IMG/VR virus record: IMGVR_UViG_3300021400_001748
Strand: one strand, 5' to 3'
DNA length: 64,000 nt
From: an uncultured virus (IMG/VR IMGVR_UViG_3300021400_001748)
Taxonomy: Duplodnaviria; Heunggongvirae; Uroviricota; Caudoviricetes
The translations under genes were made by a program, and so were the position numbers. Positions within the stretch are counted from its first letter, which is position 1. Each line of letters begins with the position of its first letter. Shown here piece by piece: positions 1-48,866 of the stretch. Below the pieces are notes generated by a model. That model worked only from the letters and a program-made list of their open reading frames with translations. It searched no databases and had not been told where the DNA came from.

Positions 1-183
1 GGGCTACAAAATTATAAAAAAAATTTGCCCCCCGCTTTCAAAAGTGAGTTATAAAAAAAAAACCGGGGTTTTTTAAAACTGAGGTGTGGTAATTCCCCCC
101 TTTTTTTTTTTTTTTTTTTTTTTTTTGCAAATATTACACCCCATATTATAGCAGATAAAAACTATTTTATGGGAGGTATTATT

Positions 184-468
184 ATGTATAACTTAAATTA
201 TGTATATGTAGTAGTTTCTATGGACAAAAAGGATTATATGATTGAGCAGCTTATCAGCGATCTTGAAGGCTGGGCTAGTCATCTGTATAGAGTCGATCGG
301 AAGAATCGGGTCCTGTATAGAGGCCTTATTCCAGTGAAAGAACTTGAGAGTCTGTTTACATTAGAAGCCATGAGTCCTTATGGAGCTGGCTACGAGATTA
401 CAGTTGACGGAGTACCTGCCAGGGATTATGGTTGTTATCCTTGGAAAGTAGTTAGAGGGATTGCATAA
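184..468 (+). CDS. hypothetical protein
   Basis: GGAGG RBS, ATG at 184, upstream repeated motif. Confidence 0.7.
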   Translation: MYNLNYVYVVVSMDKKDYMIEQLISDLEGWASHLYRVDRKNRVLYRGLIPVKELESLFTLEAMSPYGAGYEITVDGVPARDYGCYPWKVVRGIA

Positions 469-844: not shown

Positions 845-929
845 TGTTTGTTACGACTTAAGAGCAACTATTACAGCTGCTCTTTCTTTTTGCAAATATT
901 ACAGCTCCTAGTATAGGAGGTGATACTTT

Positions 930-1139
930 ATGATGAACGAATTAGATTTTCAAAAAATGCGAGGCGACGAATATTTCAAGGCACTACAAAAAGAGTGGGC
1001 TAAGAGTTATGAGTATCAATGTAAAATAACAGAACTGTTAGACAAACTATATGAGAAAGATAATGAAATATATCGTCTCAAGTGCGAAATTTCTGATTTA
1101 AAGTTTGAGTTAAAATGCACTAAAAATGGAGCAGATTAA
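930..1139 (+). CDS. small coiled-coil hypothetical protein
   Basis: AGGAGGTG RBS; heptad pattern; stop codon lies in the terminator loop. Confidence 0.7.
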   Translation: MMNELDFQKMRGDEYFKALQKEWAKSYEYQCKITELLDKLYEKDNEIYRLKCEISDLKFELKCTKNGAD

Positions 1140-1159
1140 ACATCTGCTTCTTTTTTTTT
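1131..1159 (+). terminator. intrinsic terminator GCAGAT-TAAAC-ATCTGC + T tract (also at 2142 and 8256)
   Basis: Perfect hairpin followed by T-rich sequence; three identical cores. Confidence 0.75.
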
Positions 1160-2481: not shown

Positions 2482-2765
2482 TTAAGAGCATCTACTACAG
2501 GTGCTCTTAATTTTGCAATTTTTACATCTTCTATAATGAATCATTAATATTCATTTAAAGGAGGAAAAATCTATGAATACTTGCAAACGAATCATGGACG
2601 TAGTTAATAAGTCTTTAGTTGTTTTGTACGGCGGAGGAATACTTATGAGCTGCGTTTTAGTAGGACAATGGAGTATAAATTGGGCAAAAGAGGAATTTAT
2701 GAAGGAATAATATTTGATAAGAGCATCTACTACAGGTGCTCTTAATTTTTACATCTCCTATAATG
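2482..2765 (+). repeat. direct repeat of terminator plus promoter (TAAGAGCATCTACTACAGGTGCTCTTAATTTT...ACATCT) flanking a small ORF
   Basis: Near-identical copies at about 2483 and 2718. Confidence 0.85.
2573..2710 (+). CDS. 45-aa membrane peptide (not in ORF track)
   Basis: AAAGGAGG RBS; hydrophobic core; complete cassette. Confidence 0.6.
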   Translation: MNTCKRIMDVVNKSLVVLYGGGILMSCVLVGQWSINWAKEEFMKE

Positions 2766-2798: not shown

Positions 2799-3107
2799 AT
2801 GGTAGAAAAAGAGGTACTGCAGAATTTTATAGGAATTAAATTCTGGGATTTAAAAAGGCAACTCGGGGTCGATAACGATTATTCCGACTATGAGCAGAAT
2901 AATGTTAGACAGACATATCTTGACGAATGCATCGAATTGTTACCGTATTTAATGACAAGAAGCGGAACTGTAGATGAGGCAGAAAGACTGACAAAATATT
3001 ATTTTGTACTCAAGGTGTCAGAGCATCGTCCAGATCTCGATATCACCAAGGCTAGAATTGATTTGGGAATTACAGAGCTCAAGGAAAAGTATTGTAAGGA
3101 AATTTAG
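2799..3107 (+). CDS. hypothetical protein
   Basis: Cassette with RBS and hairpin. Confidence 0.7.
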   Translation: MVEKEVLQNFIGIKFWDLKRQLGVDNDYSDYEQNNVRQTYLDECIELLPYLMTRSGTVDEAERLTKYYFVLKVSEHRPDLDITKARIDLGITELKEKYCKEI

Positions 3108-3184
3108 TAGTGAAAAAGATGAGGAGTCCTAACAAGGGCTCTTCTTTTTGTTGAGTGAAACGAAGCACTAAGGAGGTTATATTT

Positions 3185-4702: not shown

Positions 4703-4876
4703 ATGAAGATGATGAATGACAAGGAAAGACAGGTATGTTTAGGCATTATTTCTAGAGGAATTGAGAATGCGGACTTGGCGAAAGAAAACCAGGATCGTAT
4801 TATCAGAGCTCAGAGTAGGCTGATTATTGACTTGTTGACCGAAGTCACGGCTTTAAAGAAGGAACTTGGTAAATAA
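4703..4876 (+). CDS. 57-aa hypothetical protein (not in ORF track)
   Basis: Motif, AAAGGAG RBS and hairpin. Confidence 0.6.
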   Translation: MKMMNDKERQVCLGIISRGIENADLAKENQDRIIRAQSRLIIDLLTEVTALKKELGK

Positions 4877-7185: not shown

Positions 7186-7533
7186 ATGAAGGAAGAAACT
7201 ATTAACAAACTTGACAGGATCAAAAGAAAGATCGATGACCATCCACTTTTGGTAGGTCTTATTATAGGCATATCAACCGTGTCGATCATTGGCATTCCGT
7301 ATTTGATTGGTTACAGGCACGGTAAAGTAGATATGCTTAATATTGTGGACAAAAGCACAGAGCCAATCATTCAGAGGGCTTTTGATATTGGCGGGGAAGT
7401 CACTTATAGGACGATCAAAGAAAAGGCACCGAAAGCTTTCGATATGATGCATAAAGAAGTTGGGACGTTTTTAACAGTTGAGTATCCTGGAGCAACAGTA
7501 GACTATTTCAAAGGAACTATCAGAGTAAAATAA
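7186..7533 (+). CDS. membrane-anchored hypothetical protein
   Basis: Cassette; weak resemblance to 18038..18415. Confidence 0.7.
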   Translation: MKEETINKLDRIKRKIDDHPLLVGLIIGISTVSIIGIPYLIGYRHGKVDMLNIVDKSTEPIIQRAFDIGGEVTYRTIKEKAPKAFDMMHKEVGTFLTVEYPGATVDYFKGTIRVK

Positions 7534-8732: not shown

Positions 8733-8832
8733 AGGCATAAGGGCTTGCAGTTAATGCTGCAGGTCCTTATATTTTTGCAATTTTTACATCCTTTATTATA
8801 GAACATATTGATCTATAAGGAGGAAAAGGATT

Positions 8833-9370: not shown

Positions 9371-9473
9371 AGTAAATTCGGGGATCTATTACAGGTCCCT
9401 GATATTTTCGCAGTTTTTACACTTCTTATAATGAATCAAGAAGAAATGAATTCATATAAAGGAGGAAAATATT

Positions 9474-9647
9474 ATGATTAGCTTATTAACGATTGCACTT
9501 TGTTGCGTGATTCTGGCGGTATTGCTGCCTATTTTAGGAGCAATCTTTCAGGTTATTGCGCCTGTGCTAGCAGTAATAATAATCGTTATATTTGTCCCTC
9601 TGGCAATTGGAATCATTGTCGGACGGATTTCAAATAGAAAGGAGTGA
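9474..9647 (+). CDS. 57-aa very hydrophobic peptide (not in ORF track)
   Basis: AAAGGAGG RBS; flanked by repeated GGGGATCTATTACAGGTCCC hairpins at 9379 and 9655. Confidence 0.65.
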   Translation: MISLLTIALCCVILAVLLPILGAIFQVIAPVLAVIIIVIFVPLAIGIIVGRISNRKE

Positions 9648-9736
9648 TATTGAAGGGGATCTATTACAGGTCCCCACAATTTTTACAACTCCTTTAATGA
9701 AACATTCTTAAATGATACTTTAAAGGAGGATTAATT

Positions 9737-10033
9737 ATGTATTATAGTTACAAACAAGCATTAAAAGATCTATTTGAGTTAGGCGAAAAGGACCTGTGGG
9801 TAGTTCGTGCTTTCACTGAGAACGATGTAGCAGGTACTGAGGTGTTCTCTATTTATGGAACGAAAAAAGAAGCCAAAGCCTATATTAAGAGTGTAAGAAA
9901 TTATTATAAAACAAGTAGATTTTATGAGTTTCTTAGAGAAAATATAGTGACTGGCTCTTTTAGAGTCAAAGAAGTAGGAACGAACAATATACTGCTGAAT
10001 AAATTTCAGTTAATTCACGAAAGAGCTGCATAG
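9737..10033 (+). CDS. hypothetical protein
   Basis: Cassette with RBS. Confidence 0.7.
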   Translation: MYYSYKQALKDLFELGEKDLWVVRAFTENDVAGTEVFSIYGTKKEAKAYIKSVRNYYKTSRFYEFLRENIVTGSFRVKEVGTNNILLNKFQLIHERAA

Positions 10034-10115
10034 GCTCTTTTTTTTCTGCTTGAGTATTTTCGCAATTAATACACTCCTTATAATGAAATACTTATTAAAT
10101 TAAGGAGGTTCGACT

Positions 10116-10262
10116 ATGAAAAGATTATTGAAATGGATGGCAAAAGTAATATTTGAGGCAGCACTCGAAACTGTTTGGGGAATGATTGGTGCTGTAGTAA
10201 TACTTGTATCACTTGGTAAGATATTTGAATTCATAGAAAGGAGGACTAATAAGAGTAAGTAA
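10116..10262 (+). CDS. 48-aa membrane peptide (not in ORF track)
   Basis: AAGGAGGT RBS; motif upstream. Confidence 0.6.
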   Translation: MKRLLKWMAKVIFEAALETVWGMIGAVVILVSLGKIFEFIERRTNKSK

Positions 10263-10376
10263 TTCGAAGGAGATGCTGGACGAATGATATTTACATCTGG
10301 CATTTCCTTTCGCATTTTTTACACTTCTTATAATGAATCAATAGCGATTCGTTTTCAGAAAAGGAGGAAAAATAAT

Positions 10377-10445
10377 ATGTTTACAATCGGCGTTATATTG
10401 ATTTGTGCTGGATTGATCCTGTTAGTAATGGATCATAGTAAGTAA
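10377..10445 (+). CDS. 22-aa single-TM micropeptide (not in ORF track)
   Basis: Own motif, AAAGGAGG RBS and downstream hairpin; MFTIGVILICAGLILLVMDHSK. Confidence 0.55.
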   Translation: MFTIGVILICAGLILLVMDHSK

Positions 10446-10510
10446 ATCAATACGACTAAGATGGGGGCAGGATTATCTTGTCCTCTTTCTTTTTGAAAGG
10501 AGGATTATAT

Positions 10511-10942
10511 ATGAAAGGCTACACTATTTGTCCTGGATTTGGCAAGGCGTTTAAGAGAATTCGAGATCGCTATGGCATGTCAATGAAGCAATTTGGAAAG
10601 ACACTCGGCATATCATCGTCGACTTGCCATAGGTACGAGCATGAAATAGCAAAAAGAATACCAGAGGACGTGTATAATAGCTTACTTGCACTCGCTATGT
10701 ATCCGGAAGATACTAATCTATTATATTCTCTTGTAAACGAAGATGACAGCATAGATGAAGAAATGCTAAGACTTCAAGGAATTATTGATCGATTAACGGA
10801 AGAAAACAAACATTTAAAAGCGCTACTTACTGAAAAATTTATTAAGGAATGGGAAGCACAGAACAGATTATACGAGATTACCAAAAATCACAGGAAAGGC
10901 ATAGAAGACTATTTACCTGAAGCATTTAGAATAAAAGAATGA
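10511..10942 (+). CDS. XRE-family HTH protein with a coiled coil
   Basis: IRDRYGMSMKQFGKTLGISSSTCHRYE. Confidence 0.8.
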   Translation: MKGYTICPGFGKAFKRIRDRYGMSMKQFGKTLGISSSTCHRYEHEIAKRIPEDVYNSLLALAMYPEDTNLLYSLVNEDDSIDEEMLRLQGIIDRLTEENKHLKALLTEKFIKEWEAQNRLYEITKNHRKGIEDYLPEAFRIKE

Positions 10943-10984
10943 TTCGTATTTTCAATCACATTAATGAAGAGGGGAGCATAAAAA

Positions 10985-11305
10985 ATGGCACTTGTAGATA
11001 AAAATGAAATGATGGAACTTGGCAAATACTTTATTAATGGCATCGCTTACGGTGGATCTGATCCAGTTAAGGATTATATTCTGAAAGATAAGCCGTCAAT
11101 TAAACAGAAGCTTGAGACTAAAGCAACTCTTCTGAAATGCCTTAATACAGCTAAGAAGATGAAGGCAAAAGGTGCTGATCGTAATGACATGCTGGATGCA
11201 CTCACTTATGCTTATATTTTGCTTGAAACCGAAGAGCACACTATGGATCTTGGAAGAGCTAAGGCTGACTTTAGAATGGATGAGATTCAGAGGAAGTATA
11301 CTTAA
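10985..11305 (+). CDS. stand-alone paralog of a segment of the RNAP-like protein
   Basis: Ungapped manual alignment to the segment of 43392..46256 downstream of DFDGD. Confidence 0.7.
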   Translation: MALVDKNEMMELGKYFINGIAYGGSDPVKDYILKDKPSIKQKLETKATLLKCLNTAKKMKAKGADRNDMLDALTYAYILLETEEHTMDLGRAKADFRMDEIQRKYT

Positions 11306-11367
11306 ACTGTTTGAGTGTAACGAAAATCTTATGAAGTATTCATGATATATTTCTAGGGAGGAAGTTT

Positions 11368-11793
11368 ATGAGCATTGATTTGAGTACTTTAAATGATGTT
11401 GAACTTAATGAATTGTTTAAATCTATCAAGCAAGAAAAAGAACTTAGATCTAACCCTTTACGATACAAGAGCGGAATAACTAATCTTGTCACGAAAAATG
11501 AAAGCACCTTCTTGAAGTATATTGCAGAGCTTAATAAGTGCATGGGAGATGATATTCCGGAAGAAAAATTAAGTCATTATTACGAAAATTATAGAGAACT
11601 CGAAAAATCATGCTTAAAGATCTGTGATATAACACTTGGCAACTATAAAGTCCGTATCAATTCTTTAGGCTCTATTAAGCGAGGATGTAACGGCTCCATG
11701 ATAGAAATAGAGGATCCAACAGAATACGCTGAAATGTATCAGGAGCTGTTTAAAGTAATTGACAAGCATTTGTTTAAAGATGCAAAAGACTGA
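11368..11793 (+). CDS. hypothetical protein
   Basis: GGGAGG RBS. Confidence 0.7.
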   Translation: MSIDLSTLNDVELNELFKSIKQEKELRSNPLRYKSGITNLVTKNESTFLKYIAELNKCMGDDIPEEKLSHYYENYRELEKSCLKICDITLGNYKVRINSLGSIKRGCNGSMIEIEDPTEYAEMYQELFKVIDKHLFKDAKD

Positions 11794-11863
11794 TTCCGCA
11801 ATTTTTACCTTTCGTATAATGAGACAATGTAGATCTCATTAATTTTTGAAAGGAGAAAGAATT

Positions 11864-12247
11864 ATGGAAAACGAGAAGATTATTAACTTTGAAGCACTTA
11901 AGAAACAGATTAAAATCGAAACTGCTAAAAGAAAGTTTAAAGAGGCAACAGACAAGGCAAAGCAGAAAGCCGGTGAAGTGTATTGCTGGGCAAAGGAACA
12001 TCCTGCTGAAGCTGCTTCTCTTGGTGCATCTGCAGCTATTATCGCGAAGAAGACGATTGGCTACAGAGCTGTCAAGAAGGAGGAGTACAGAAGGAAGACG
12101 GAGTTCTTCGATCCACGAACAGGCAAATACGCCTTTTCGAAGAAGCCTCTTACAACTAAACAGCAGCTCGAAGCAGAAAGGAGGTACAAAGAAAATAGAA
12201 ATACAACTTGGACCCAGGTTCTCTATGAAATGGGATTGTCTAAGTAG
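11864..12247 (+). CDS. basic phage hypothetical protein
   Basis: Motif, RBS and terminator. Confidence 0.7.
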   Translation: MENEKIINFEALKKQIKIETAKRKFKEATDKAKQKAGEVYCWAKEHPAEAASLGASAAIIAKKTIGYRAVKKEEYRRKTEFFDPRTGKYAFSKKPLTTKQQLEAERRYKENRNTTWTQVLYEMGLSK

Positions 12248-12326
12248 TCTCAAAACCCTGTGGCAGAAATGTCATGGGGTTATATTTTCTGATTTGAATT
12301 CATGAGTAATCGAAAGGAGAAATCTA

Positions 12327-12605
12327 ATGGCTTGCAAGTATTGTGATGACGTATTCACTGGTAACTGTTGCGATGATATTTTAACTGGAGATCTTCATAT
12401 GGGGTCTGTTAAGGTTGGAGACATTTCGGTATTCATCACCGAGGACTTCAAAGAGGGAGAAGCTGTCTTGAAACTCTATGCTGAAGTAGCCGACACTCCA
12501 ATTGTGAGAAAGGGAATTCCGATCAAGTTCTGTCCGTTCTGTGGTAAGAAACTTATCATGCCTGCCAAAGCTCAGGAGGATTTCCGAAAGAGGTTTTGGT
12601 CATGA
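12327..12605 (+). CDS. Cys-rich zinc-binding protein
   Basis: CKYC ... FCPFCG. Confidence 0.7.
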   Translation: MACKYCDDVFTGNCCDDILTGDLHMGSVKVGDISVFITEDFKEGEAVLKLYAEVADTPIVRKGIPIKFCPFCGKKLIMPAKAQEDFRKRFWS

Positions 12606-12832
12606 GTAGTTATAAGCCGAAGCAGATATCAGTACTTAAGAGGGCAAAATTCCCATGTAAAGACTGCAATGACAGACATACAGGATGCCATGATAAGTGT
12701 ACTAAGTATAAGGAAAGCATAAATAGATTTCATAATGCAAAAGATGAAAATGAATCTGTTTACAAGGATCTCTATAAAGGAATTTATAGGGGTCCTTCTA
12801 TTTATTATGGGACAAGTAGGAGGTATAAATGA
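12596..12832 (+). CDS. Cys/His-rich protein, paralog of 20190..20393
   Basis: PCKDCNDRHTGCHDKCTKY. Confidence 0.65.
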   Translation: MVMSSYKPKQISVLKRAKFPCKDCNDRHTGCHDKCTKYKESINRFHNAKDENESVYKDLYKGIYRGPSIYYGTSRRYK

Positions 12833-13146
12833 ACAACGAAAGAACTATCCTTAGCTTTTTAGTAGCTGGTATGAATTCGGAATTTTTCGATGACAAGAAC
12901 TCGGCGTCCGCATTACTCAATGAAATTAAGAACGTTATTGACACTCTTGGCAGTATTTCAGTGGATACTATCTGTGATATTTATGAAAAACATACTTCTG
13001 CACATTATGATAAGGTATACCGTAACATCAATTACAGATGGCATAGTATCAAGGATTTTAAATTTGTGGAAGCTATTAATTGTAGAACTGGAAGTCCATA
13101 TTACAGAATTGGCATTACAATTCCAACAAGCAACGAGGAGGTATAA
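12829..13146 (+). CDS. hypothetical protein with DUF6353-like C-terminal motif
   Basis: LLNEIKNVIDTLGSISVDTICDIY...YRW. Confidence 0.65.
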   Translation: MNNERTILSFLVAGMNSEFFDDKNSASALLNEIKNVIDTLGSISVDTICDIYEKHTSAHYDKVYRNINYRWHSIKDFKFVEAINCRTGSPYYRIGITIPTSNEEV

Positions 13147-16581: not shown

Positions 16582-16606
16582 CGCAAAAACTTCAAGTACT
16601 TAGATG
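16582..16606 (+). promoter_or_regulatory. copy of the repeated promoter motif
   Basis: CGCAAAAACTTCAAGTACTTAGATG. Confidence 0.55.
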
Positions 16607-16678
16607 AGTCGGAGAAATCCGGCTTTTGTTTTTCATGTAATTATATTTTTGAGACTGTTATCAAGAAAGGAGAAAAGG

Positions 16679-17527
16679 ATGAATCTTGGTAAGGTACTAA
16701 AAACAACCGGTAAGTCGATACTTGGATTTGCCAATAAGAATTCGCATATCATAAGTGGGTGTGCGGCAATTGCAGGGGTAGCTGTTACGGCTATCCTTGC
16801 ATATAAGTCGTATCCAAAAGTGAATAGAATTATTGAAGATCAGAAAGAAAAGATGGATGAGCTCGACGAGGTAGTTAATATTCCGGAAGAAGAGCTCAAA
16901 AGATGTCGTCGCGAGATCACTGTTGATACATGTAAGAGTCTTGCTCCAGCGCTTGCACCTGCTATCGTGAGCGGTATTGCCACATGCGGACTAATGGGGT
17001 TCTCAATCGTGAGCGGTAACAAGAAAATTGCAGCTGCTACAAGTCTTGCTGCTTTATATGAAACGGCAAATAGAGAGATCCTAAACAAGACAAAAGAGCT
17101 CGTTGGCGAAGAAAAGGCTGAAGAGATTAGACAGGAGGCACTAAAAGAAGAAGTCAAGAATAAATTCTGTGATATTTCAGAAGAAGAGATGGAACAGATA
17201 ATCATGCAGGCAGATGGTGGAGATACCTGGTTCTATGATCCGAATATTGGAAGGCCATTCAAGTCTGATGTGGAGACAATTCAAAGAGCTTGTATGAGTC
17301 TAACTAAGAGGCTGATTAGTGGTCAGGAACCGTATATAGACTATAATGACTTTCAATCGGCAATAGGTCTTCCACAGACGATGTTTGGTTCGTTGGTAGC
17401 ATGGGGAGGCACCTCACCAGCACGGGAGATTGAACCGAATCTTAATAACACTATCAGAATTGGTGAAAAAGCCATGATCATTCTTGATTGGTACACAAGA
17501 CCGACATCACAGTATAGAAACAGCTGA
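16679..17527 (+). CDS. DUF6353-like phage protein
   Basis: NSHIISGCAAIAGVAVTAILAYK; WFYDPNIGRPFKSD; IDYNDF. Confidence 0.8.
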   Translation: MNLGKVLKTTGKSILGFANKNSHIISGCAAIAGVAVTAILAYKSYPKVNRIIEDQKEKMDELDEVVNIPEEELKRCRREITVDTCKSLAPALAPAIVSGIATCGLMGFSIVSGNKKIAAATSLAALYETANREILNKTKELVGEEKAEEIRQEALKEEVKNKFCDISEEEMEQIIMQADGGDTWFYDPNIGRPFKSDVETIQRACMSLTKRLISGQEPYIDYNDFQSAIGLPQTMFGSLVAWGGTSPAREIEPNLNNTIRIGEKAMIILDWYTRPTSQYRNS

Positions 17528-18037: not shown

Positions 18038-18415
18038 ATGGCAGCTACTATCACAGTTGAGAAGAAAGACGAAAGATCTAAGCTTCAGAAGGCTAAGGAT
18101 TTCGCTATCAAGTACCGGTATGTTATTCTCGGAAGTATGGCAGCTGGAGTATTATATTCCATGGGATTTAAAAGTGGATGGAACACTAAGGCTAAAGTCG
18201 ATTTGAATATATTCAATGAATCTCTTCCTGCTATTGTCGAGAAAAGTGGACGAATAGGAGCATTCAGCTTTTATGATTGGATGGCTGAAAGAGTACCGGA
18301 GGCATTAAAGCTTTGCGATGAGTTCAGTGACAAGCATCCGGAGCTTTCGAATATTCGTGATTATTTCATGAAGAATGAAGAGATTATGAAGACTCTTGAG
18401 GTCTGCAAAAAGTAA
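18038..18415 (+). CDS. membrane-anchored hypothetical protein
   Basis: AAGGAGG RBS. Confidence 0.7.
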   Translation: MAATITVEKKDERSKLQKAKDFAIKYRYVILGSMAAGVLYSMGFKSGWNTKAKVDLNIFNESLPAIVEKSGRIGAFSFYDWMAERVPEALKLCDEFSDKHPELSNIRDYFMKNEEIMKTLEVCKK

Positions 18416-19990: not shown

Positions 19991-20203
19991 TTGTTCTTTG
20001 TTATAGCAATAGTTTCGTATCTGTTTTCATTGATTGATTTCGCAGTTGGTAATCATGAGGCTGCCTGGAAGTTGGTTGTTCTGGGCAGTCTTTTTCTTAA
20101 TCTTTACTATTTAACTTATATTTTCTTGAGGGTAAGGGAGATCGAGAAATTCATAGAGTTTATGAAGAAAAAATCCGAGGGGTCAAATTTTGAGCAACTT
20201 TAA
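19991..20203 (+). CDS. small membrane protein
   Basis: Two hydrophobic segments. Confidence 0.5.
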   Translation: MFFVIAIVSYLFSLIDFAVGNHEAAWKLVVLGSLFLNLYYLTYIFLRVREIEKFIEFMKKKSEGSNFEQL

Positions 20204-20393
20204 TTATCCATTTAATCCAAACGGTCCATGCAGAGAGTGTCACGACAGGTATCCGGCTTGCCATGACAAATGTGAAAGTTATATTTCATACAAGAAAGAA
20301 TACGATAAGAAGCAAAAGAGAATTAGAGCTGACAAGTATCTTCATAGCTTGTCGTTTCCAATGAGCACGCATCCAAAACGGAGAGAACTATGA
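20190..20393 (+). CDS. Cys/His-rich protein, paralog of 12596..12832
   Basis: PCRECHDRYPACHDKCESY. Confidence 0.65.
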   Translation: MSNFNYPFNPNGPCRECHDRYPACHDKCESYISYKKEYDKKQKRIRADKYLHSLSFPMSTHPKRREL

Positions 20394-33017: not shown

Positions 33018-34112
33018 ATGAATAAAGGCAAAGTAGGAAAGTTATTCACTAAAATCAAATTGCCTGAAAAGGTAAAAGTGGGGGTTGGCATGGCAAGTCT
33101 CAAGGTAAAGAAGCATTCACCAGAAATTCTTCTTGGCCTTGGATTCGTGTCGATGGGAGCTGCAATTATATCTGCGGTGAGGTCAGCAAGAGAGCACGAT
33201 CAACTCATTGCAGATCATGAGGAAAGACTTGAGGCAGCCAAATGTGAGTATGTTATTCCTGATGAATATGACATCATCGCAGAAGCTGAATCGGGTGAAT
33301 ACAAGATGAGTGCTGGCGGTGGCACTATCGTTCGGAAGACAGAGAAAGAAGTGAACAGTGCTATCAGAAAATGCTACTTTGAGACGGCTGTAGGGTTCGC
33401 TAGATTATATGCCCGTACAACGCTGTATACGGCGATTTCAGCGCTTTGTTTCGTTAGTGCATATAATATACAGGCAAGGAGGGTATTGGCCCTAGAAACG
33501 GCGTATACGAGCTTACAGGAGTATATTAGGAAGTACGAACAGCGAAATATTGAACTCAATGGGAAAAAGAGCCATGAAATGTGTAAATATGGCTATAAAG
33601 AGATCGAAGCAACTGAAGAAGATCCGGATACTGGAGAGACTGTAACAGAGAAAAAGTTAGTACCTGCTTATGAAGGTGCGAGTAGTGAAGAGATGGCTAA
33701 AATGCCGTTCCATGATCAGTTCTTTATATTCTGTAAGCAGTCAGCGCCAGGAAAGTATACAGGGTTTGCAAATCGTGATAAGACAGAACTTGCGATTTCA
33801 GAAGATTATCTGAACGACCTTATTAATGCAAGAGGCTGGGCAGTTGTAAATGACTGGCTCGATTCAATTGGAATGGAAAGAACGGCTCAGGGTATGATTG
33901 AAGGATGGGTCAAAGGATATGGTCCTAGAGCTACGATTGGATGGGACGATCCGATTAATCGTGAGGCACTTGATGGGCATAATCACAGAGATTGGTACCT
34001 GGATTGTAATGTTCATGGTAATGTTTTCTCTATTCTTTCAGAGATGGAAAAGAAGAAAGAGGAACTAGAAGAGAAGTTAAAAGCTGAGCGTCTTGCTGAG
34101 GAGAAGGTGTAA
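33018..34112 (+). CDS. DUF6353-like phage protein
   Basis: KKHSPEILLGLG; YLNDLINARGWAVVNDWLDSIG..EGW; LDCNVHG. Confidence 0.8.
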   Translation: MNKGKVGKLFTKIKLPEKVKVGVGMASLKVKKHSPEILLGLGFVSMGAAIISAVRSAREHDQLIADHEERLEAAKCEYVIPDEYDIIAEAESGEYKMSAGGGTIVRKTEKEVNSAIRKCYFETAVGFARLYARTTLYTAISALCFVSAYNIQARRVLALETAYTSLQEYIRKYEQRNIELNGKKSHEMCKYGYKEIEATEEDPDTGETVTEKKLVPAYEGASSEEMAKMPFHDQFFIFCKQSAPGKYTGFANRDKTELAISEDYLNDLINARGWAVVNDWLDSIGMERTAQGMIEGWVKGYGPRATIGWDDPINREALDGHNHRDWYLDCNVHGNVFSILSEMEKKKEELEEKLKAERLAEEKV

Positions 34113-36601: not shown

Positions 36602-39600
36602 ATGCGACATTTTGTGCGAATTGATTGCGAAATTAGGGAGGCAAAACGCAACGGAAAAAAGAGGTTATATTTGATCGTAAAACCGGCCTATAACATCACT
36701 GCAAAAGACATCATGAAGAAGGGCGGAAAGTTCTATGCAATCCTCGATAGAAATACCGGAATGTGGTCAACAGATGAAGGCGATGTAGCCACCATAATCG
36801 ACAACGATATAAAAGAGTATGTGAAGACACAATGCCGTAAGGATGAAGCCGGGAATTATATTTGGCATGATAGAGCAGATGACACTTATTTGCCAGTTCA
36901 TATGCTATTAATTGATGATAGCACTTCTGGCCAGCTTCTTGAGTTCAATAGATGGTTTAATAACCTCCCTCCGAATCATAACTATGTACAGCTTGATTCA
37001 GATATCACATTTAAAGATGACGCGGTTACTCCTGAAATGTACAGAAGCAAGCGACTGTCATATAGTATAAGTCCTGGAGACATTGAAGCCTATGACAGAC
37101 TTATGAGCGTATTATATTCTGAGCAGGATAGAGAAAAAATTGAATGGTCTATTGGATCAGTGTTCACAGGGATGTCTAAGAAGATTGAGAAGATTCTTGT
37201 TCTTTACGGAAAACCTGGAAGCGGAAAGTCGACAGTACTTGATCTTATCAAAGAATTGTTCAAAGGATACTGGGCTCCGTTTGTTGCAAGTGAGCTTGTC
37301 AGTAAAACGAATCAGTTTGCGACTGCAGTGTTTAAGGACAATCCTTTAATAGCAATTCAGGACGATGGCAGTCTTGCCAAGATCGAGTCTCCAGTCATTA
37401 ATGAAATTATATCCCATAAGGATGTAATGATTAATGAGAAGTCTAAGCAGCAGTATGCAATCCGTTCAAACGCATTCTTATTTCTCGCCACCAATGAGGT
37501 TGTAGACATACGCGATAGAAAACTTGGCATCACAAGAAGGCTTCTTGACGTTTATCCATCTGGCAAAAAAATACCGGAAGATGAATTTGACTCAATCGTT
37601 GAAAGACTGAGATTTGAACTTGGAGCAATAGCTGATCATTGCATAACGGTATTTAAAACTCTTGGCAAGAATTACTATAGTCGATACGAGCCAATGAAGA
37701 TGATCGAAAAAACTAATCCTCTTCAGAATTTCTTGTTTGATAACTTAGACAGTCTCATGGGCAAGGAGTTCTACTTTCGTGATCAATTATATTCTGATTA
37801 CAAAAATTACTTTGAAGAAAGTGGTTTTGGGTATCCGCCAAAAAGAATGGACTTCACTGAGCAAGTAACAGAATATTTTGAAACATATGAAAAGACGAAG
37901 TGGATCCCAGGAAGAGGAACTGTTAGAAATGTGTTTTCAGGTCTAAAGGTAAATAAGATTTGCGGACTTGGAGAAAGTGACACTGTAAAAAAGTCGTCGA
38001 CGTGGCTTAACTTTGATCAGACGGAATCAATTCTTGATGAATTATATTCTGATCAGCCTGCACAGTATGCAAAAGATGACGGAACTCCAAAAAATAAATG
38101 GAGTAAAGTCAAGACGAAACTTAAAGACATGGATAAGTCCAAGCTTTATTGGGTGAAGTTTCCTGAGAATGTGATAAAGATGGATTTTGACTTGACTGAC
38201 AAAGACGGGAATAAGTCGCTGGAGGAGAATGTTAAGGCGGCTTCTAAGTTTCCTCCAACTTACGGTGAGTTGTCAAAGTCTGGTCAAGGCATTCACCTTT
38301 ATTATATTTACGATGGAGACCCTAGCGAGCTTGAAGATATGTTCGCTGAACATATTGAAATCAAGAAATCATTTGGCGACAGATCACATAGACGACTTAT
38401 CACGAAATGTAATAATCTACAATTAGCTCATTTAAGCACGGGACTTCCGTTGAAAGGAGAGGGGGTCAAAGTGATAGACGAAAATGTAGTAGCAACAGAA
38501 AAGGGATTGCGGACAACTATTCTGAAATGCACTCACAAAGAAGTTCATGGCGATACGAGATCAAATATTGATTTCATTTACAAAGTTCTTGAAGATGCTT
38601 ACAACAGCGGACTCAAGTATGATGTGTCTGATATGAGACAGGAAGTACTTATATTCGCTATGAATTCAACTCACCAGTCTGAATACTGTGTCAACAAAGT
38701 CGGAGAAATGAAGTTCTCATCTGAAGAAGCTGGACGATATGATGACAGCTATGATCCAGATGGACCAATTATATTCTTCGACTATGAAGTTTTTCCAAAC
38801 CTTGTATTACTTTGCTATAAAGTACAAGGCGAAGGAAATCCAGTAACTAAAATATTTAATCCTACTCCGAAACAGATTCAAGATTTTCTTGGAATGGAGC
38901 AGAAGTACAAGAACAAAGTCATAGGATTCAATAACAAAGAATATGATAATCACATAACTTATGCTCTTCTTATGGGCAAGACACCTTATGAGGTCTTTAT
39001 TATATCTCAGGGAATCATTAATAAAGAGAAAGGTGCTAAGTTTAGAGAAGCTTACAATTTATCGTATTCAGATATCAGAGACTTTTGTCCAAATAAGCAG
39101 TCACTAAAGAAATGGGAGATTCAGCTTGGCATTCATCATCAGGAACTTGGATTCAGATGGGATGAGCCGGTCGATGAAAAAGATTGGCCGACAGTAGCAT
39201 CGTATTGCGAAAATGATGTCATTGCAACTGAAGCAGTTTTTGAAGCTAATCAGGCAGCTTGGAAAGGAAGACAGATCTTAGTAGATCTTGCGAATATCCT
39301 TATTGGGCCTGGATCAACGGTTAATGACAGTACGAATCAGCTTACAACAAAACTGATAGTCGGGAACGAAAAGAATCCTCAGCGGTATTACAATTATCCA
39401 GATTTAGCAAAAGAGTTCCCAGGATATGAATTTAACAAGTTCGGCATTGATAAGTCTCGTTATATTTCAAAAGATGTTATTATCAGCGGCAAATCTATTT
39501 ACAAAGGCTACGATCCTGGAGAAGGTGGCTTTGTCTGGGCAAATCATGGAATGTACGGAAGAGCCATAAGCTTTGATAGTGCTTCTCATCATCCTAGCTC

Positions 39601-40606
39601 AATAATTGCTGAGAATGGATTCGGCAAGTTCACAGAAAACTTTAAACGGCTTCTTGATTTGAGACTTCATGTGAAACATAAAGAGTATGACATTATCAGA
39701 AGCATGTACAATGGAGCGTTGGCAAAATATCTGCAAACAGATGAAGATGCCGATGCTCTTTCTTTTGCACTTAAGATAGCAATCAATAGTGTATACGGCC
39801 TTACAGCAGCTACATTTCCTCATCCTCTTCGTGATCCGAGGAATATCGACAATTGGGTTGCTAAGCGCGGAGCACTATTCATGATTGATTTGATGCTTAA
39901 TGTAAGAGCTATGGGCTACACCGTGCTACATTGTAAGACGGATTCGATAAAGGTCCTTAATCCTGACGAGAAGGTAGCCAATTATATTTACGAATATGGC
40001 AAGAAGTTTGGATACACCTTTGAGATTGAGCATATCTTTGATCGTATTTGTCTTGTTAATGATGCTGTTTACGTCTGTAAGTATACAGAAGATCCTGAAA
40101 ATGGAAAGCATGCTGGCAAATGGGATGCTACTGGAAAACAGTTTCAGGTTCCGTATGTTTTCAAGACTCTATTCTCGCATGAGCCAATAGAGTTTGAAGA
40201 CATGTGCGAAACGAAGAACGTCGAGACGGCATTATATTTGGATTACAACGAAAATCTGCCTGATGGAGAGCATGATTATCAGTTCGTTGGAAAGACAGGT
40301 CAGTTTTGTCCTATAAAGCCTGGCTGTGGTGGAGCTCTTCTTATGCGAGAGAAAGATGGAAAGTACGCCGCTGCAGAAAGTACGAAAGGATATAGATGGC
40401 TTGAGGCAGAAGTTGTAAAGAAGTTTGAAAAAGAGGACACTATTGACACTTCATACTATGAAGTCATGGTAAATAAAGCATTGGACAAAATTGGCGAATT
40501 CGGAAGCTATGAAAAGTTTGTTTCTGATGAGCCTATTGATCCTCCATTACCAGATTTCATGAATATCCCGGAAACAGATGAAGAAGAATTGCCATGGGCA
40601 CTTTAA
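36602..40606 (+). CDS. fused SF3 (D5-like) helicase, primase-like domain, 3'-5' exonuclease and family-B-like DNA polymerase
   Basis: Walker A GKPGSGKST; DFD and SKSGQGIHLYY; Exo motifs FDYE, GFNNKEYD, YCENDV; Pol motifs DSASHHPS, KIAINSVYG, KTDS. Confidence 0.88.
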   Translation: MRHFVRIDCEIREAKRNGKKRLYLIVKPAYNITAKDIMKKGGKFYAILDRNTGMWSTDEGDVATIIDNDIKEYVKTQCRKDEAGNYIWHDRADDTYLPVHMLLIDDSTSGQLLEFNRWFNNLPPNHNYVQLDSDITFKDDAVTPEMYRSKRLSYSISPGDIEAYDRLMSVLYSEQDREKIEWSIGSVFTGMSKKIEKILVLYGKPGSGKSTVLDLIKELFKGYWAPFVASELVSKTNQFATAVFKDNPLIAIQDDGSLAKIESPVINEIISHKDVMINEKSKQQYAIRSNAFLFLATNEVVDIRDRKLGITRRLLDVYPSGKKIPEDEFDSIVERLRFELGAIADHCITVFKTLGKNYYSRYEPMKMIEKTNPLQNFLFDNLDSLMGKEFYFRDQLYSDYKNYFEESGFGYPPKRMDFTEQVTEYFETYEKTKWIPGRGTVRNVFSGLKVNKICGLGESDTVKKSSTWLNFDQTESILDELYSDQPAQYAKDDGTPKNKWSKVKTKLKDMDKSKLYWVKFPENVIKMDFDLTDKDGNKSLEENVKAASKFPPTYGELSKSGQGIHLYYIYDGDPSELEDMFAEHIEIKKSFGDRSHRRLITKCNNLQLAHLSTGLPLKGEGVKVIDENVVATEKGLRTTILKCTHKEVHGDTRSNIDFIYKVLEDAYNSGLKYDVSDMRQEVLIFAMNSTHQSEYCVNKVGEMKFSSEEAGRYDDSYDPDGPIIFFDYEVFPNLVLLCYKVQGEGNPVTKIFNPTPKQIQDFLGMEQKYKNKVIGFNNKEYDNHITYALLMGKTPYEVFIISQGIINKEKGAKFREAYNLSYSDIRDFCPNKQSLKKWEIQLGIHHQELGFRWDEPVDEKDWPTVASYCENDVIATEAVFEANQAAWKGRQILVDLANILIGPGSTVNDSTNQLTTKLIVGNEKNPQRYYNYPDLAKEFPGYEFNKFGIDKSRYISKDVIISGKSIYKGYDPGEGGFVWANHGMYGRAISFDSASHHPSSIIAENGFGKFTENFKRLLDLRLHVKHKEYDIIRSMYNGALAKYLQTDEDADALSFALKIAINSVYGLTAATFPHPLRDPRNIDNWVAKRGALFMIDLMLNVRAMGYTVLHCKTDSIKVLNPDEKVANYIYEYGKKFGYTFEIEHIFDRICLVNDAVYVCKYTEDPENGKHAGKWDATGKQFQVPYVFKTLFSHEPIEFEDMCETKNVETALYLDYNENLPDGEHDYQFVGKTGQFCPIKPGCGGALLMREKDGKYAAAESTKGYRWLEAEVVKKFEKEDTIDTSYYEVMVNKALDKIGEFGSYEKFVSDEPIDPPLPDFMNIPETDEEELPWAL

Positions 40607-43391: not shown

Positions 43392-46256
43392 ATGGACAAT
43401 TATATTTCATCAGCAAATGACGAAATGTTAGATGAATTCTTAATGCACTATGGTGTTGGTCCTGATGACAATCCACCTGGCAGAGGATCAGGAAGATATG
43501 CAAAAGGCAGCGGTGACAATCCGCTTCAGCACGACACTAGCATTTTGGGCGTTGTCGCAGACATGAAAAAGCAAGGCATGTCAGAGTCTGATATAGCTTT
43601 AGCACTTGGGTTTGTGAACCGTAAAGGTAAACCATCTACGACATCACTTAGAGCTGCACAGTCTATTGCTAAAGATCAGAGAAAGCTCGATCTGTCACAA
43701 ATGGTTCCAAGGTATAAAGAAAGCGGCATGAGCAATCAGGCTATAGCTTCTAAACTTGGAATCTCTGAATCGTCTGTTCGTAACTATCTTGATAAAGACA
43801 GAACAATTCAGCTTGGTAAGGCAACCAATGTTGCTAACAGACTGAAAGAAGAATTAAAAACGAAGCATTATATTGACGTTGGTCCTGGTGTCGAGCTTGA
43901 AAACGGCGTTTCTGCTGAACGAATGAAGACAGCACTTGAGATGATGAAGCAAGAAGGATACAAGATTCATCTTGTAAACGTTGAGCAAGTTGGAAATCCT
44001 GGGAAATACACAACGATCAAAGTAGTAGGTGAACCAGATACTGAATGGAAGACTGTTGTTCAAGATCCAAGCCTTATAAAGCCATTTCAGAGCTATGCTC
44101 AGAATGACGGTGAAACTGTTCTTGGACTTAGACCAGTTAAGTCAATTGATTCGAAGCGAGTCTATATTAATTACACTGATGAAAATGGTAAAGGCGGCGC
44201 TGAGAAAGACGGAACCATTGAACTTAGACGAGGCGTTGAAGACATTTCTCTTGGCAACAGTAGATATGCTCAGGTTCGAATTGGTGTAGATGGCACTCAT
44301 TACATGAAAGGTATGGCTATTTATAGTGATAACATACCTGACGGTTATGATGTTGTCTATAACACTAATAAAAAGATTGGAACTCCTCCCGAAGATGTCT
44401 TCAAACCTATGAAAAGGATTAAGAATCCAGATGGTTCTGATGGTCCAATCAATCAGGAGAATCCATTTGGTGCTTCTATTAAGCCTTTCAATGCTGGAGG
44501 CCAGAGCTACTGTCTTGATAAGAATGGCAATCCTACTGATCAGCTTAGAGTTATCAATAAGATTAATGATCAGGGCGACTATGCTGAGTGGTCTAAGACT
44601 ATTTCGGCACAGGTTCTTGCTAAGCAGCCATTACCACTTATCAGAAGACAGCTTGAGCTTACTTACCAGGACAAAGTTGAACAGTACAATACCATCAAGT
44701 CGTTAGATAATCCAACAATCAAGAAGAAATTGCTTGAATCATTTGCCGATGATTGTGATGCTTCTGCCGTTCACCTTAAAGCTCAGGCATTTCCTGGTCA
44801 GGCTAGTCATGCTATCATACCAATTCCTTCTTTAGCCGGCGATGACAACTACAAGAAGAAGCATGGCGTTGATGGTGAGATCTATGCACCGAATTATGAG
44901 AATGGAACGACTGTTGCTCTTATACGATACCCGCATGCTGGCACATTTGAGATTCCTATTCTTAGAGTTAATAATAACAACAAAGAAGGTCGCGCTGTTC
45001 TTGGCAATGCTCCTGACGCTGTTGGAATTAATGCTAAGATTGCAGAACGATTATCAGGTGCCGACTTTGATGGCGACACTGTTTCTGTAATACCTACAAC
45101 TCATACGAATATTCTTAGTACACCAAGACTTGACGGACTTAAGAACTTCGATCCTAAGATGTATAAGTTTGCTGACCCAAATGCACCCGGCATTAAGTCA
45201 CAAACTAAGCAGACTGAGATGGGTAAGGTTACAAACCTGATTGCAGATATGCAGATCAAGGGTGCTAAGCCTGAAGAGATTGTAAGAGCTGTTAAACATT
45301 CCATGGTTGTTATCGATTCAGAGAAGCATCATCTTGATTACAAGGCATCCGAAGCTGACAACAGAATTAAAGAGTTGAAAGAACTGTACCAGAGAACTCC
45401 TGAAGGTACTGGCGCTTCCACACTCATCACTCGTGCTGGATCAGAGAAGCATATTCCTGAGCGTAAGGTTGGCAGTGTTGAGATTACAGATCCTGTTACT
45501 GGCAAGACACGTAAGTATTATGGAGTTGATCCTCGTACTGGCGAGAAGATACTTGTGCCTACTGGTAATACTTATGAGAAAGATGGCAAGACAGTAACAA
45601 GAACGGAGACAGTTCCTTGGATGTCAATCAAGACTGACGCAAGAGAACTGATGTCATCACGTAGTAATCCAAACCCGGTAGAGCTGGCTTATGCGAACTA
45701 TGCTAACCGTATGAAAGCTATGGCTCTTGAAGCTAGGAAGGAAGCAGTGAATACCCCCGGACTCAAGAGAGACCCCCAGGCTGCCAGGGAGTACCGTGAA
45801 GAAGTTGATACCCTCACCTCTAAACTGAACATCGCTTTAAAGAATGCACCTAAAGAAAGGCAAGCTCAGATCATTGCTAATGTCACCTATAAGAATCAGA
45901 TAGAATCTAACCCATCCCTGAAGGAGGATAAGACCTATCTGAAGAGACTACGTGGCCAGGCACTTGACGCCGCTCGTCGACGCATTGGCGCTGGCAAAAC
46001 AAGGATAGACATAACTGATAGGGAATGGGAAGCTATTCAAAAGGGTGCCATTAGTGATGCAAAGCTTAGAAAGATTCTGGATAACACCAAATCTGAAGAG
46101 ATTGTTAAGCGTGCAACTCCAAGAGAAAACAAAGCTTTGTCTGCAAGCAGGGAGGCATTAGCTAAAACAATGGCCGCCTCTGGTTACACACAGGCAGAGA
46201 TAGCACAGAGACTTGGCGTGTCTGTCACTACTGTATCTAAAGCTATTAATGGTTAA
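43392..46256 (+). CDS. single-chain double-psi-barrel RNA polymerase-like protein with HTH domains
   Basis: RYPHAG followed by LSGADFDGD catalytic-type motif; HTH-like segments at both ends. Confidence 0.75.
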   Translation: MDNYISSANDEMLDEFLMHYGVGPDDNPPGRGSGRYAKGSGDNPLQHDTSILGVVADMKKQGMSESDIALALGFVNRKGKPSTTSLRAAQSIAKDQRKLDLSQMVPRYKESGMSNQAIASKLGISESSVRNYLDKDRTIQLGKATNVANRLKEELKTKHYIDVGPGVELENGVSAERMKTALEMMKQEGYKIHLVNVEQVGNPGKYTTIKVVGEPDTEWKTVVQDPSLIKPFQSYAQNDGETVLGLRPVKSIDSKRVYINYTDENGKGGAEKDGTIELRRGVEDISLGNSRYAQVRIGVDGTHYMKGMAIYSDNIPDGYDVVYNTNKKIGTPPEDVFKPMKRIKNPDGSDGPINQENPFGASIKPFNAGGQSYCLDKNGNPTDQLRVINKINDQGDYAEWSKTISAQVLAKQPLPLIRRQLELTYQDKVEQYNTIKSLDNPTIKKKLLESFADDCDASAVHLKAQAFPGQASHAIIPIPSLAGDDNYKKKHGVDGEIYAPNYENGTTVALIRYPHAGTFEIPILRVNNNNKEGRAVLGNAPDAVGINAKIAERLSGADFDGDTVSVIPTTHTNILSTPRLDGLKNFDPKMYKFADPNAPGIKSQTKQTEMGKVTNLIADMQIKGAKPEEIVRAVKHSMVVIDSEKHHLDYKASEADNRIKELKELYQRTPEGTGASTLITRAGSEKHIPERKVGSVEITDPVTGKTRKYYGVDPRTGEKILVPTGNTYEKDGKTVTRTETVPWMSIKTDARELMSSRSNPNPVELAYANYANRMKAMALEARKEAVNTPGLKRDPQAAREYREEVDTLTSKLNIALKNAPKERQAQIIANVTYKNQIESNPSLKEDKTYLKRLRGQALDAARRRIGAGKTRIDITDREWEAIQKGAISDAKLRKILDNTKSEEIVKRATPRENKALSASREALAKTMAASGYTQAEIAQRLGVSVTTVSKAING

Positions 46257-47673: not shown

Positions 47674-48018
47674 ATGCTTGAAATTAAGGATGGCGTAATT
47701 ACTGTCACTCAAGGGGACACAATTGAAACGTCTCTTGAAATGTACATTGACGAGGAGATGGAAACACCATATGTTCCATCCTCTCTTGATCAGATTTGGT
47801 TTGCTGTGAAGGACAAAGATAGACCAAACGTCGAACCGATCTTTAGTGTTCAGATCCCTGTTGATACTATGATCCTTCGAGTCGAACATGAGGACACTGA
47901 GAAGTTGCCGTATAAGGATAAACCTTACTACTACGACGTTGAGCTGATCACTCCTGATGGAACTCATAAGACCTTCATTTCCAATCTTCTTTACTCTACG
48001 AGGGAGGTACATAAATGA
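47674..48018 (+). CDS. BppU-N-like structural protein
   Basis: ITVTQGDT..FAVK..YYYDVEL pattern. Confidence 0.55.
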   Translation: MLEIKDGVITVTQGDTIETSLEMYIDEEMETPYVPSSLDQIWFAVKDKDRPNVEPIFSVQIPVDTMILRVEHEDTEKLPYKDKPYYYDVELITPDGTHKTFISNLLYSTREVHK

Positions 48019-48866
48019 GCGTTGAACCTATTAAAGGCGTACTTTCCATTTATACGAATCCTCTCTACGGAACCTTAGCATCTGAATTACTTAGAGGCTA
48101 CTCTGCTTACAATATAGCAGTGATGGAAGGATATGAAGGCACAATTGATGAATGGCTTGAATCTCTTAAAGGTGAAAAAGGAGACAAAGGCGACGTTGGT
48201 GAAACCGGACCTCAAGGAGAGAAGGGCGATACAGGTCTTCCTGGATCTGACGGCGAAACTGGACCAAAAGGCGACAAGGGTGATAAAGGCGATACTGGCA
48301 ATGGCATTTATGCAGTTGTCTTAAGAGCTGACTATACACTTTCTATATACTTTACAGATGGTTCAGTTTACAATACACCATCCATCAGAGGACGAGAAGG
48401 AGCTGTAGGTCCAGCTGGTCCTGTTGGTCCACAAGGTGAGACTGGCGCAAAAGGCGATAAGGGTGACACTGGAGACGCTGGCGTTGGAATTTCCTCAATT
48501 GTTCAAAATGCCGACCATTCTTTAACGATTAATCTTGACAACGGTACTAGTTATACAACTGATCCAGTTGAAGCTTTAAAAGGAGACAAAGGCGATACTG
48601 GCAACGGTATCTCTTCGATAGTCATGAAGTCTGATTACACTCTTCAGATCAACATGACGAATGGTGCTTCTTACACTACACCTTCGATCCGTGGCGTTGC
48701 TGGCGCAAAAGGCGACAAAGGCGATCCAGGCGAGCTGACCTTTGAAGATAAGCCTGTGGATGCTTCTGCGTCTGGTTCACAAGGACAGGTAGCGTATGAT
48801 AGCAATTATCTGTATATCTGTGTGGAAACGAATACATGGAAACGAGTTGCACTTGAGACATGGTAA
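48015..48866 (+). CDS. collagen-like (Gly-X-Y) fibre protein
   Basis: GXY runs alternating with three copies of a G-I-x-x-I/V-V...D-Y/H-T/S-L module. Confidence 0.85.
   Translation: MSVEPIKGVLSIYTNPLYGTLASELLRGYSAYNIAVMEGYEGTIDEWLESLKGEKGDKGDVGETGPQGEKGDTGLPGSDGETGPKGDKGDKGDTGNGIYAVVLRADYTLSIYFTDGSVYNTPSIRGREGAVGPAGPVGPQGETGAKGDKGDTGDAGVGISSIVQNADHSLTINLDNGTSYTTDPVEALKGDKGDTGNGISSIVMKSDYTLQINMTNGASYTTPSIRGVAGAKGDKGDPGELTFEDKPVDASASGSQGQVAYDSNYLYICVETNTWKRVALETW

Follow-up and report, generated by a model that had tools for sequence, protein, structure and literature searches.

The 64,000-nucleotide window analyzed here is the genome of an uncultured gut phage (IMG/VR record IMGVR_UViG_3300021400_001748) in which every gene lies on the plus strand. 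At positions 10985..11305 (+), from an ATG start, it encodes a stand-alone protein of 106 amino acids, ORF106 (for open reading frame), and our analysis confirmed that this protein is truly paralogous to part of the phage's own RNA polymerase (RNAP), residues ~580-668. The parent enzyme, a 954-aa single-chain two-barrel RNA polymerase with a helix-turn-helix (HTH) at both ends, is encoded at 43392..46256 (+), 32 kb downstream of ORF106. An earlier sequence-only reading of this DNA had singled out ORF106 as a stand-alone, non-catalytic paralog of the polymerase segment just after the DFDGD motif, located in an accessory region, and this description is now backed by statistics on the sequences, by profiles and predicted folds, and by selection. 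As possible roles, that reading put forward a decoy for a host sensor, a dominant-negative regulator or an exclusion factor. Three points go beyond it: ORF106 belongs to a multi-copy family, this family is confined to one phage lineage, and the copied piece is the bridge-helix/trigger-loop module lining the polymerase active centre. The interpretation we favor, with a probability of roughly 35%, is that these mini-proteins are mimics that titrate a ligand of the module.

A BLASTP comparison of ORF106 with the 954-aa RNAP gave 36.6 bits (E 8e-8) and 21 identities over 72 residues (29%), aligning ORF 35-105 with RNAP 597-666. None of 500 shuffled ORF106 sequences used as queries reached this score (mean 15.7, standard deviation 2.1, maximum 25.4 bits). 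An ungapped alignment of 52 residues had previously been counted by hand at 14 identities; our recount against RNAP 615-666 (window 45234-45389) gave precisely 14, along with 33 positives; the BLOSUM62 scores added up to 79, a value reached in 0 of 20,000 fixed-register shuffles (mean -36.9, standard deviation 14.9, maximum 26). The profile methods agreed with the pairwise comparisons. Profile-profile alignment with hhalign of six small proteins against 34 RNAPs yielded a probability of 96.3% and an E value of 1.8e-9, with 77 columns aligned free of gaps (residues 29-105 of the small proteins against RNAP 591-667), and a hidden Markov model (HMM) built from 28 small proteins, free of RNAP sequences, recovered the window RNAP with an E value of 2.3e-13 (45.8 bits). 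By pairwise BLAST, ORF106 matched 185 of 197 family RNAPs with a median of 30.8 bits. Pfam assigned no family to ORF106, and its match to phrog_4291, the family of which the RNAP is a full-length member (E 0, 1073 bits), was sub-threshold (E 0.064, profile 563-629 of 909).

In a joint alignment, the small proteins corresponded to RNAP ~580-668 end to end, ending at a conserved '...KYQ'. The additional upstream match 'DP..Y...P.IK' reported before needs small gaps, three of which were placed by BLAST, and the homology it pointed to stands, being extended by the joint alignment to the N-terminus of the small proteins from RNAP ~580. The DFDGD motif occupies RNAP residues 558-562 and thus precedes the copied segment, in agreement with the earlier remark that ORF106 lacks the catalytic motif. 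The phage's own RNAP was never the top-scoring RNAP for any small protein (it ranked 15 of 185 for ORF106); the scores therefore point to no particular donor or date for the duplication. At E<=1e-3, the window held no small-versus-large paralogy other than ORF106-RNAP, hence this phage does not scatter pieces of its other essential genes.

In all cellular-type RNA polymerases, the bridge helix and the trigger loop make up the mobile core. The copied segment is encoded at 45129..45395 (+) and, according to the joint alignment, the AlphaFold2 (AF2) model and a mapping onto the Neurospora enzyme QDE-1, covers RNAP 580-668 with a bridge helix at ~603-622 and a trigger-loop subdomain at ~627-667. 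RNAP 583-667 ranks among the best-conserved parts of the enzyme: across 34 sequences, 21 of its columns are invariant and 12 near-invariant. The AF2 model of ORF106 (28 sequences) had a predicted local distance difference test (pLDDT) of 86.5 and a predicted template-modeling score (pTM) of 0.78, and was all-helical apart from two short strands; that of RNAP 480-720 (52 sequences) had values of 82.9 and 0.70. The elements of the two models paired at a constant offset of 561: helices 39-61, 66-83, 89-95 and 98-105 of ORF106 corresponded to RNAP helices 603-622, 627-646, 650-656 and 659-667, and strand 86-87 to the strand at 648. Differing folds had been named beforehand as an argument against paralogy, and the helices of ORF106 and RNAP coincide. 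As fold and register are the same, these models support module mimicry.

Fold searches with the ORF106 model retrieved a single match better than E 0.8 in BFVD, a 190-aa protein with the annotation RNA-dependent RNA polymerase (RdRP; E 1.3e-3, probability 1.0, TMq 0.65). In the PDB, the same model retrieved generic helical bundles only (VIA Z<=5.9; no Foldseek match below E 1.7), and P74-26 gp62 (8f5m_A) came up at a Z of 4.5, within noise. The larger RNAP 480-720 model aligned with QDE-1 (7y7p_A; VIA Z 9.1, root-mean-square deviation 3.9 Å, 176 residues, model 1..187 = 916..1144). Its matches to maize RDR2 and Thermus phage P74-26 gp62 likewise had Z 9.1, and those to the largest subunits of cellular polymerases had Z 8-9.4. 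QDE-1 was not recovered when PDB chains were searched by sequence or profile. In QDE-1, the second double-psi beta-barrel (DPBB2) spans 916-1018 with the catalytic loop at 1007-1011, and a helical 'flap' (1025-1161) forms, together with the barrels, the presumed nucleoside triphosphate (NTP) tunnel (PMC1750930). Its bridge helix touches template positions +1/+2 through L1082, G1083, M1084, N1087 and R1091, and its trigger-loop subdomain (1102-1136) touches the incoming NTP through V1115, D1116 and K1119, the trigger loop being rigid and packed on the bridge helix by hydrophobic contacts (PMC9508822). Two phage RNAP motifs invariant in 34 RNAPs, M610-G611..N615 and I641-D642..K645, match the spacing of these QDE-1 motifs, and their offsets (951 and 953) agree with the ends of the structural alignment. 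The fold match to QDE-1 and this motif spacing therefore identify the copied segment as the bridge helix and trigger-loop subdomain. From the ranges and motif spacing, QDE-1 G1083, N1087, D1116 and K1119 would correspond to RNAP G611, N615, D642 and K645. On these models, the mini-proteins are free-standing copies of the RNAP bridge-helix/trigger-loop module, with the helices that follow the catalytic barrel predicted to be present.

The earlier idea that relatives might carry similar fragments proved fruitful, as we found a multi-copy family. A second, diverged member, ORF102 (102 aa), is encoded in the window at 2799..3107 (+). It was detected by tblastn with P0005, a small protein from a related phage (E 1.4e-11 at 2799-3092), and was matched by family HMMs with E values of 1.4e-26 and 2.7e-27. 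ORF102 resembled ORF106 with E 8e-4 and had no significant match to the RNAP by direct pairwise BLAST (E 4.4-10), so that its link to the family runs through ORF106 and P0005. The nearest related IMG/VR virus record, G001 (87,960 bp, 100% complete, 42% of the window's sampled words in common), carries four copies (45458-45742, 47212-47508, 47685-47987 and 54664-54972), including an ORF106 identical in protein to that of the window and two adjacent genes for P0005 and P0006. P0005 (103 aa) matched the RNAP at residues 584-666 (39.7 bits, E 6e-9) and P0006 (121 aa) at residues 633-666 (E 2e-5). Hence, the same RNAP segment is matched independently by three small subfamilies. In the window, the syntenic place of P0005 and P0006 is occupied by an unrelated-looking ORF of 57 aa (4703..4876). 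This ORF was considered as a third window copy on the basis of an E value of 0.0018 with a mixed profile, and it was rejected at an hhalign probability of 4.8%.

The family comprised 27 clusters of 82-121 aa among 5.8 billion clustered proteins, with frames intact and length conserved across the clusters. A single-sequence search with ORF106 of 1.8 billion representatives retrieved four small relatives only and no RNAP at library-wide thresholds. Protein and DNA searches of the GenBank phage collection gave no family member, bacterial genomes (one per species) gave no close relative of ORF106, and the ESM Atlas gave no usable match. A search for longer proteins with the domain fused gave none at E<=0.01, which is weak evidence. 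We also ran a joint profile on 24 other RNAP-bearing IMG/VR records (contigs of at least 40 kb from 80 loci, with RNAPs 42-51% identical to that of the window): all 24 matched in the RNAP gene only. The family is thus confined to one phage lineage.

To what extent the copies resemble the polymerase module varies between subfamilies. Of the 24 RNAP positions in 612-666 that are invariant or nearly so, ORF106 keeps 6 (N615, M620, G624, A633, H646 and Y666), and its replacements include D619K, S637A, K645E, K651G, N657F and K663Q. At the four putative contact residues, ORF106 retains N615 and carries G611L, D642E and K645E; ORF102 carries G611D and N615E; the P0005 type keeps the glycine and the lysine and has N615T and D642K; and the P0006 type keeps G, D and K and has N615R. 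All four residues together occur in no subfamily, and each subfamily retains a different subset. ORF106 falls outside the definition of a two-barrel RNAP (two double-psi beta-barrels and a DxDGD loop; Pfam RdRP PF05183). Because they are devoid of barrels and have lost most contact residues, the mini-proteins are not catalytic.

Comparison of alleles showed that the mini-genes are under purifying selection: of the codon changes between ORF106 and the L005 allele, 17 are synonymous and 2 non-synonymous, and between ORF106 and the G001 allele there are 2 synonymous changes and 0 non-synonymous. When 24 small proteins were placed in a tree with 60 RNAP segments (every third of 180 distinct), based on 89 columns, which are few for 84 rows, a branch with SH-aLRT 87 had the small proteins on one side, and they may have a single origin. 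They formed four deep subfamilies with stems of 2.7-4 changes per site, compared with single RNAP branches mostly below 0.5 and up to ~0.8. The isoelectric point (pI) of the subfamilies spans 4.9 to 9.1, and the helix of ORF106 equivalent to the bridge helix is lysine-rich.

The cassette-like setting described for ORF106 was borne out, since the first ~12 kb of the window are divided into short units, with copies of a promoter-like motif and terminator-like hairpins at their borders. The motif, TTTTTACAnnTCnTATAATG, has 15 plus-strand copies at 485-11821, with 17 matches in the window against 0.66 expected. Its core, TTTACA-N5-TATAAT, was found 14 times at 487-11820 and once at 42409-42425 (+), 5' of the exonuclease-polymerase genes. 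Of 17 RNAP-bearing IMG/VR records, 5 showed an excess of the core on the gene strand (18 in G001, 12 in G004, 8 in G021, 6 in G019 and 4 in G025; 0-2 in the reversed control), the remaining 12 having at most 3 each. Terminator-like GC hairpins with T tails numbered 22 in window 1-14000 against 6.1 expected, 21 of them on the plus strand, and they split the early region into units of one to four genes. ORF102 is preceded by a hairpin at 2718..2744 (+) and, 33 nt upstream of its start, by a copy of TTTTTACAnnTCnTATAATG with 0 mismatches (2746..2765, +); as another hairpin follows at 3121..3144 (+), it constitutes a one-gene unit. ORF106 lies in a unit between an Xre-type HTH gene directly 5' of it (10478..10942, +, start TTG 10478 or ATG 10511; Pfam Xre-like-HTH E 6.8e-6) and ORF141 (141 aa, 11368..11793, +), which had no family match. 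Searches of the ORF106 neighbors with Pfam, PHROGs and NCBIfam returned nothing beyond the Xre-type HTH. The order HTH-ORF106-ORF141 is kept in G001, and the ORF layout of L005 shows it too. The nearest TTTTTACAnnTCnTATAATG copy 5' of this unit (0 mismatches) lies at 10316..10335 (+) and probably drives ORF106; a terminator-like hairpin is present before the unit at 10463..10485 (+), and the first listed after ORF106 is at 12254..12281 (+). ORF106 has its own Shine-Dalgarno-like sequence, GAGGGGAG, 8 nt 5' of its start. Taken with this layout, the mini-genes would be expressed early; among public sequencing runs, none from RNA was listed as containing them.

Regarding gene calls, some database entries start ORF106 at an upstream ATG and give 121 aa (L005:2956-3321; P0127, P0157 and others), overlapping the end of the HTH gene; the Shine-Dalgarno-like site belongs to the 106-aa start. 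Another database allele, P0002 from an 84.6-kb contig, enters the overlapping +1 frame after residue ~82 (window 11172..11345) and is frameshifted or mis-sequenced. The spacing of the TTTTTACAnnTCnTATAATG motif is non-sigma70, and some of the hairpins are near-identical, e.g., those at 7952-7985, 8737-8770 and 7540-7586.

The reading we favor starts with a duplication of part of the phage's own RNAP gene, which would have given rise to a lineage-specific family of ~100-120-aa proteins. Nothing but the helical part that follows the catalytic barrel, namely the bridge helix and the trigger-loop subdomain, would have been duplicated, and the copies are predicted to fold autonomously into the same helical bundle, in keeping with the rigid trigger loop of QDE-1 and its hydrophobic packing. 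With most template- and NTP-touching residues lost, they do not polymerize. Housed in the early accessory region, in units each set behind an early promoter-like motif, they have diversified into the four deep subfamilies, with 2-4 copies per genome. The mini-proteins may then mimic the polymerase module and bind and titrate its ligand, thereby protecting or tuning phage transcription. The titrated ligand could be a host or rival-phage inhibitor reaching the active centre or the NTP channel, or it could be a phage regulator. We infer both the binding and the decoy or competitor action of the mini-proteins. A more specific proposal is that they are sacrificial copies absorbing an inhibitor (a host defense protein, a small molecule or a rival-phage factor) of the RNAP active centre or NTP channel, with the divergent copies recording an arms race, but this seems to us rather unlikely.

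Several observations weigh against such mimicry. The bridge-helix/trigger-loop module lines the active centre and not the outer surface, therefore it presents no obvious target for a protein sensor, and a surface 'sensor epitope' is less obvious than the sequence-only reading assumed. Most conserved polar residues of the module are changed, whereas one would expect them to be retained by a faithful mimic of its functional face. The subfamilies differ in charge (pI 4.9 to 9.1) and in the residues they keep, which fits separate new functions equally well as an arms race. Lastly, 24 of the 24 more distant RNAP-bearing records were without a detectable copy.

The replaced residues also lead to a possible, though somewhat doubtful, alternative: a neofunctionalized helical bundle that descends from the polymerase module and whose present role no longer concerns the polymerase, for instance taking over the host or binding nucleic acids or proteins in its own right. 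The replacement of most invariant polar module residues, the very long subfamily stems (2.7-4 changes per site) and the spread in pI from 4.9 to 9.1 between subfamilies would all be expected from such a change of role, as would the lysine-rich bridge-helix-equivalent helix of ORF106, the lack of detectable pairwise-BLAST similarity between ORF102 and RNAP, and the location of the mini-genes among early small ORFs without assigned function. However, the domain boundaries of the module and all its secondary-structure elements are retained and the family occurs only in phages having the polymerase. Moreover, 2-4 copies of one polymerase piece are kept and no piece of another protein, which suggests a link to the enzyme.

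The copies could instead act on a polymerase directly, as microProtein-type regulators or exclusion factors that bind the two-barrel polymerase of the phage itself or of a superinfecting relative, at the barrel face, in the NTP channel or during folding, and inhibit or retime transcription. A natural docking surface for a free copy can be proposed from QDE-1, as described for that enzyme, where the module packs on DPBB2 and both form the NTP tunnel (PMC1750930, PMC9508822). However, the polymerase's own covalent module occupies that docking site, and the barrel-facing residues are poorly retained in the copies. Early mini-genes with a polymerase gene 32 kb downstream would suit such timing, microProteins are described as acting in this way (PMC9638782), and divergent copies could target different relatives. 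On balance, we regard this explanation as unlikely.

That the copies are decaying, functionless remnants of partial gene duplications is very improbable. They are fragments of a larger gene, the database variant P0002 has a shifted C-terminus and the 24 more distant relatives have no copies, all of which decay could explain; however, 17 synonymous against 2 non-synonymous codon changes, intact frames with conserved length in 27 clusters, the Shine-Dalgarno-like site of ORF106, the promoter-like motif 5' of both paralog units and a confident predicted fold speak for maintained genes. Finally, a chance likeness of two helical, charged sequences, for which one could cite the identity of just 29% over 72 residues and the generic helical bundles that the small model gives in PDB fold searches, is refuted by the controls (0 of 500 and 0 of 20,000 shuffles reaching the observed scores, hhalign E 1.8e-9, small-only HMM E 2.3e-13, 185 of 197 RNAPs matched by ORF106 and three subfamilies independently matching one RNAP segment).

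We then compared the mini-proteins with known systems. The QDE-1 module (PDB 7Y7P; the 'flap' 1025-1161 of the 2006 structure) is like the phage RNAP segment in its position after the catalytic barrel and in its succession of helices, and the parent RNAP shares its G(+4)N and D(+3)K motif spacing. In both QDE-1 and the phage RNAP, the module sits within an enzyme of ~950-1400 aa and its contact residues are kept, whereas the mini-proteins are free chains of 102-121 aa with no barrels and with most of these residues changed. The phrog_4291 polymerase family (bioRxiv 10.1101/842583) is the parent family, and no stand-alone fragment is mentioned in the accessible part of that report. MicroProteins, as outlined in PMC9638782, share with the mini-proteins a size below 20 kDa, a single domain and descent from a larger protein. 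They differ in that microProteins carry the interaction domain of a dimerizing regulator (PMC9638782), whereas the mini-proteins derive from the active-centre module of a monomeric-looking enzyme. Fragments of essential genes have also been described in Bodo saltans virus (BsV), where a decoy role was proposed (PMC5871332). Like the mini-genes, they are multi-copy, fast-diversifying virus genes with pieces of the virus's own essential enzymes; however, BsV is a eukaryotic giant virus and its fragments are fused to ankyrin repeats (PMC5871332), whereas the phage mini-protein stands alone with no added domain. By analogy, a decoy role would be a proposal for the phage mini-proteins just as it is for BsV.

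Domain-fragment paralogs, be they microProteins or viral decoys, are a kind already known, of which free-standing copies of a bridge helix and trigger loop would be a new form. As far as the accessible text of the published literature goes, our search found no account of free-standing, selected, multi-copy bridge-helix/trigger-loop proteins. Were the copies to act on the polymerase or on its behalf, they would offer a handle on the regulation of, or the attack on, a very widespread putative phage polymerase family. A bridge-helix/trigger-loop unit that folds autonomously would, in that case, also bear on the evolutionary assembly of two-barrel polymerases. Should they be sacrificial copies, they would represent the first decoy made from the helices of a polymerase catalytic centre and would imply a new class of anti-phage factors directed against phage-encoded two-barrel polymerases. 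If they are merely recycled helical bundles, they would amount to little more than a neat case of domain exaptation.

The parent polymerase is itself part of a large group. Its Pfam HTH matches lie at ~100-135 and 920-953, at least 7,999 database proteins are related to it, and relatives were found in 250 phage records, including Arthrobacter, Gordonia, Streptomyces, Lactococcus and Faecalibacterium phages. All of these phage-record relatives are less than 60% identical to the window RNAP, with ~44-46% among the matches listed. An HTH-flanked 'RdRP-like' putative polymerase was defined computationally in a supercluster of Actinobacteria and Firmicutes phages of the Lactococcus 1706 / Faecalibacterium FP_oengus type (bioRxiv 10.1101/842583). 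The same type appears as the '1706' group among YonO-like proteins (PMC2919709), and YonO is described as a proven DNA-dependent RNA polymerase (PMC5467207).

The remainder of the window, all on the plus strand, is organized around this enzyme. Small ORFs without assigned function occupy ~1-13 kb and are followed by nucleotide-metabolism genes. A replication block at 36.6-43.4 kb encodes a DNA polymerase/primase, an annealing protein, a helicase and an exonuclease, and HNH, terminase, portal and protease genes lie 3' of the RNAP gene. The largest gene (36602..40606, +) codes for a 1334-aa fused primase-polymerase (phrog_4210) and has the genes for the annealing protein, the helicase, the exonuclease and the RNAP just 3' of it. 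Three paralogs of phrog_2152, which has no assigned function, are present in this one genome (14137..14985, 16604..17527 and 33018..34112; E 2.5e-29 to 5.3e-37). Two other small paralog pairs were observed, namely 7186..7533 with 18038..18415 (E ~1e-4) and 12596..12832 with 20190..20393 (E ~3e-6), the latter being cysteine-rich. Downstream of the polymerase, 48015..48866 encodes a 283-aa protein with collagen-like G-x-y repeats (GDKGDxG) that matches tail-fibre PHROGs.

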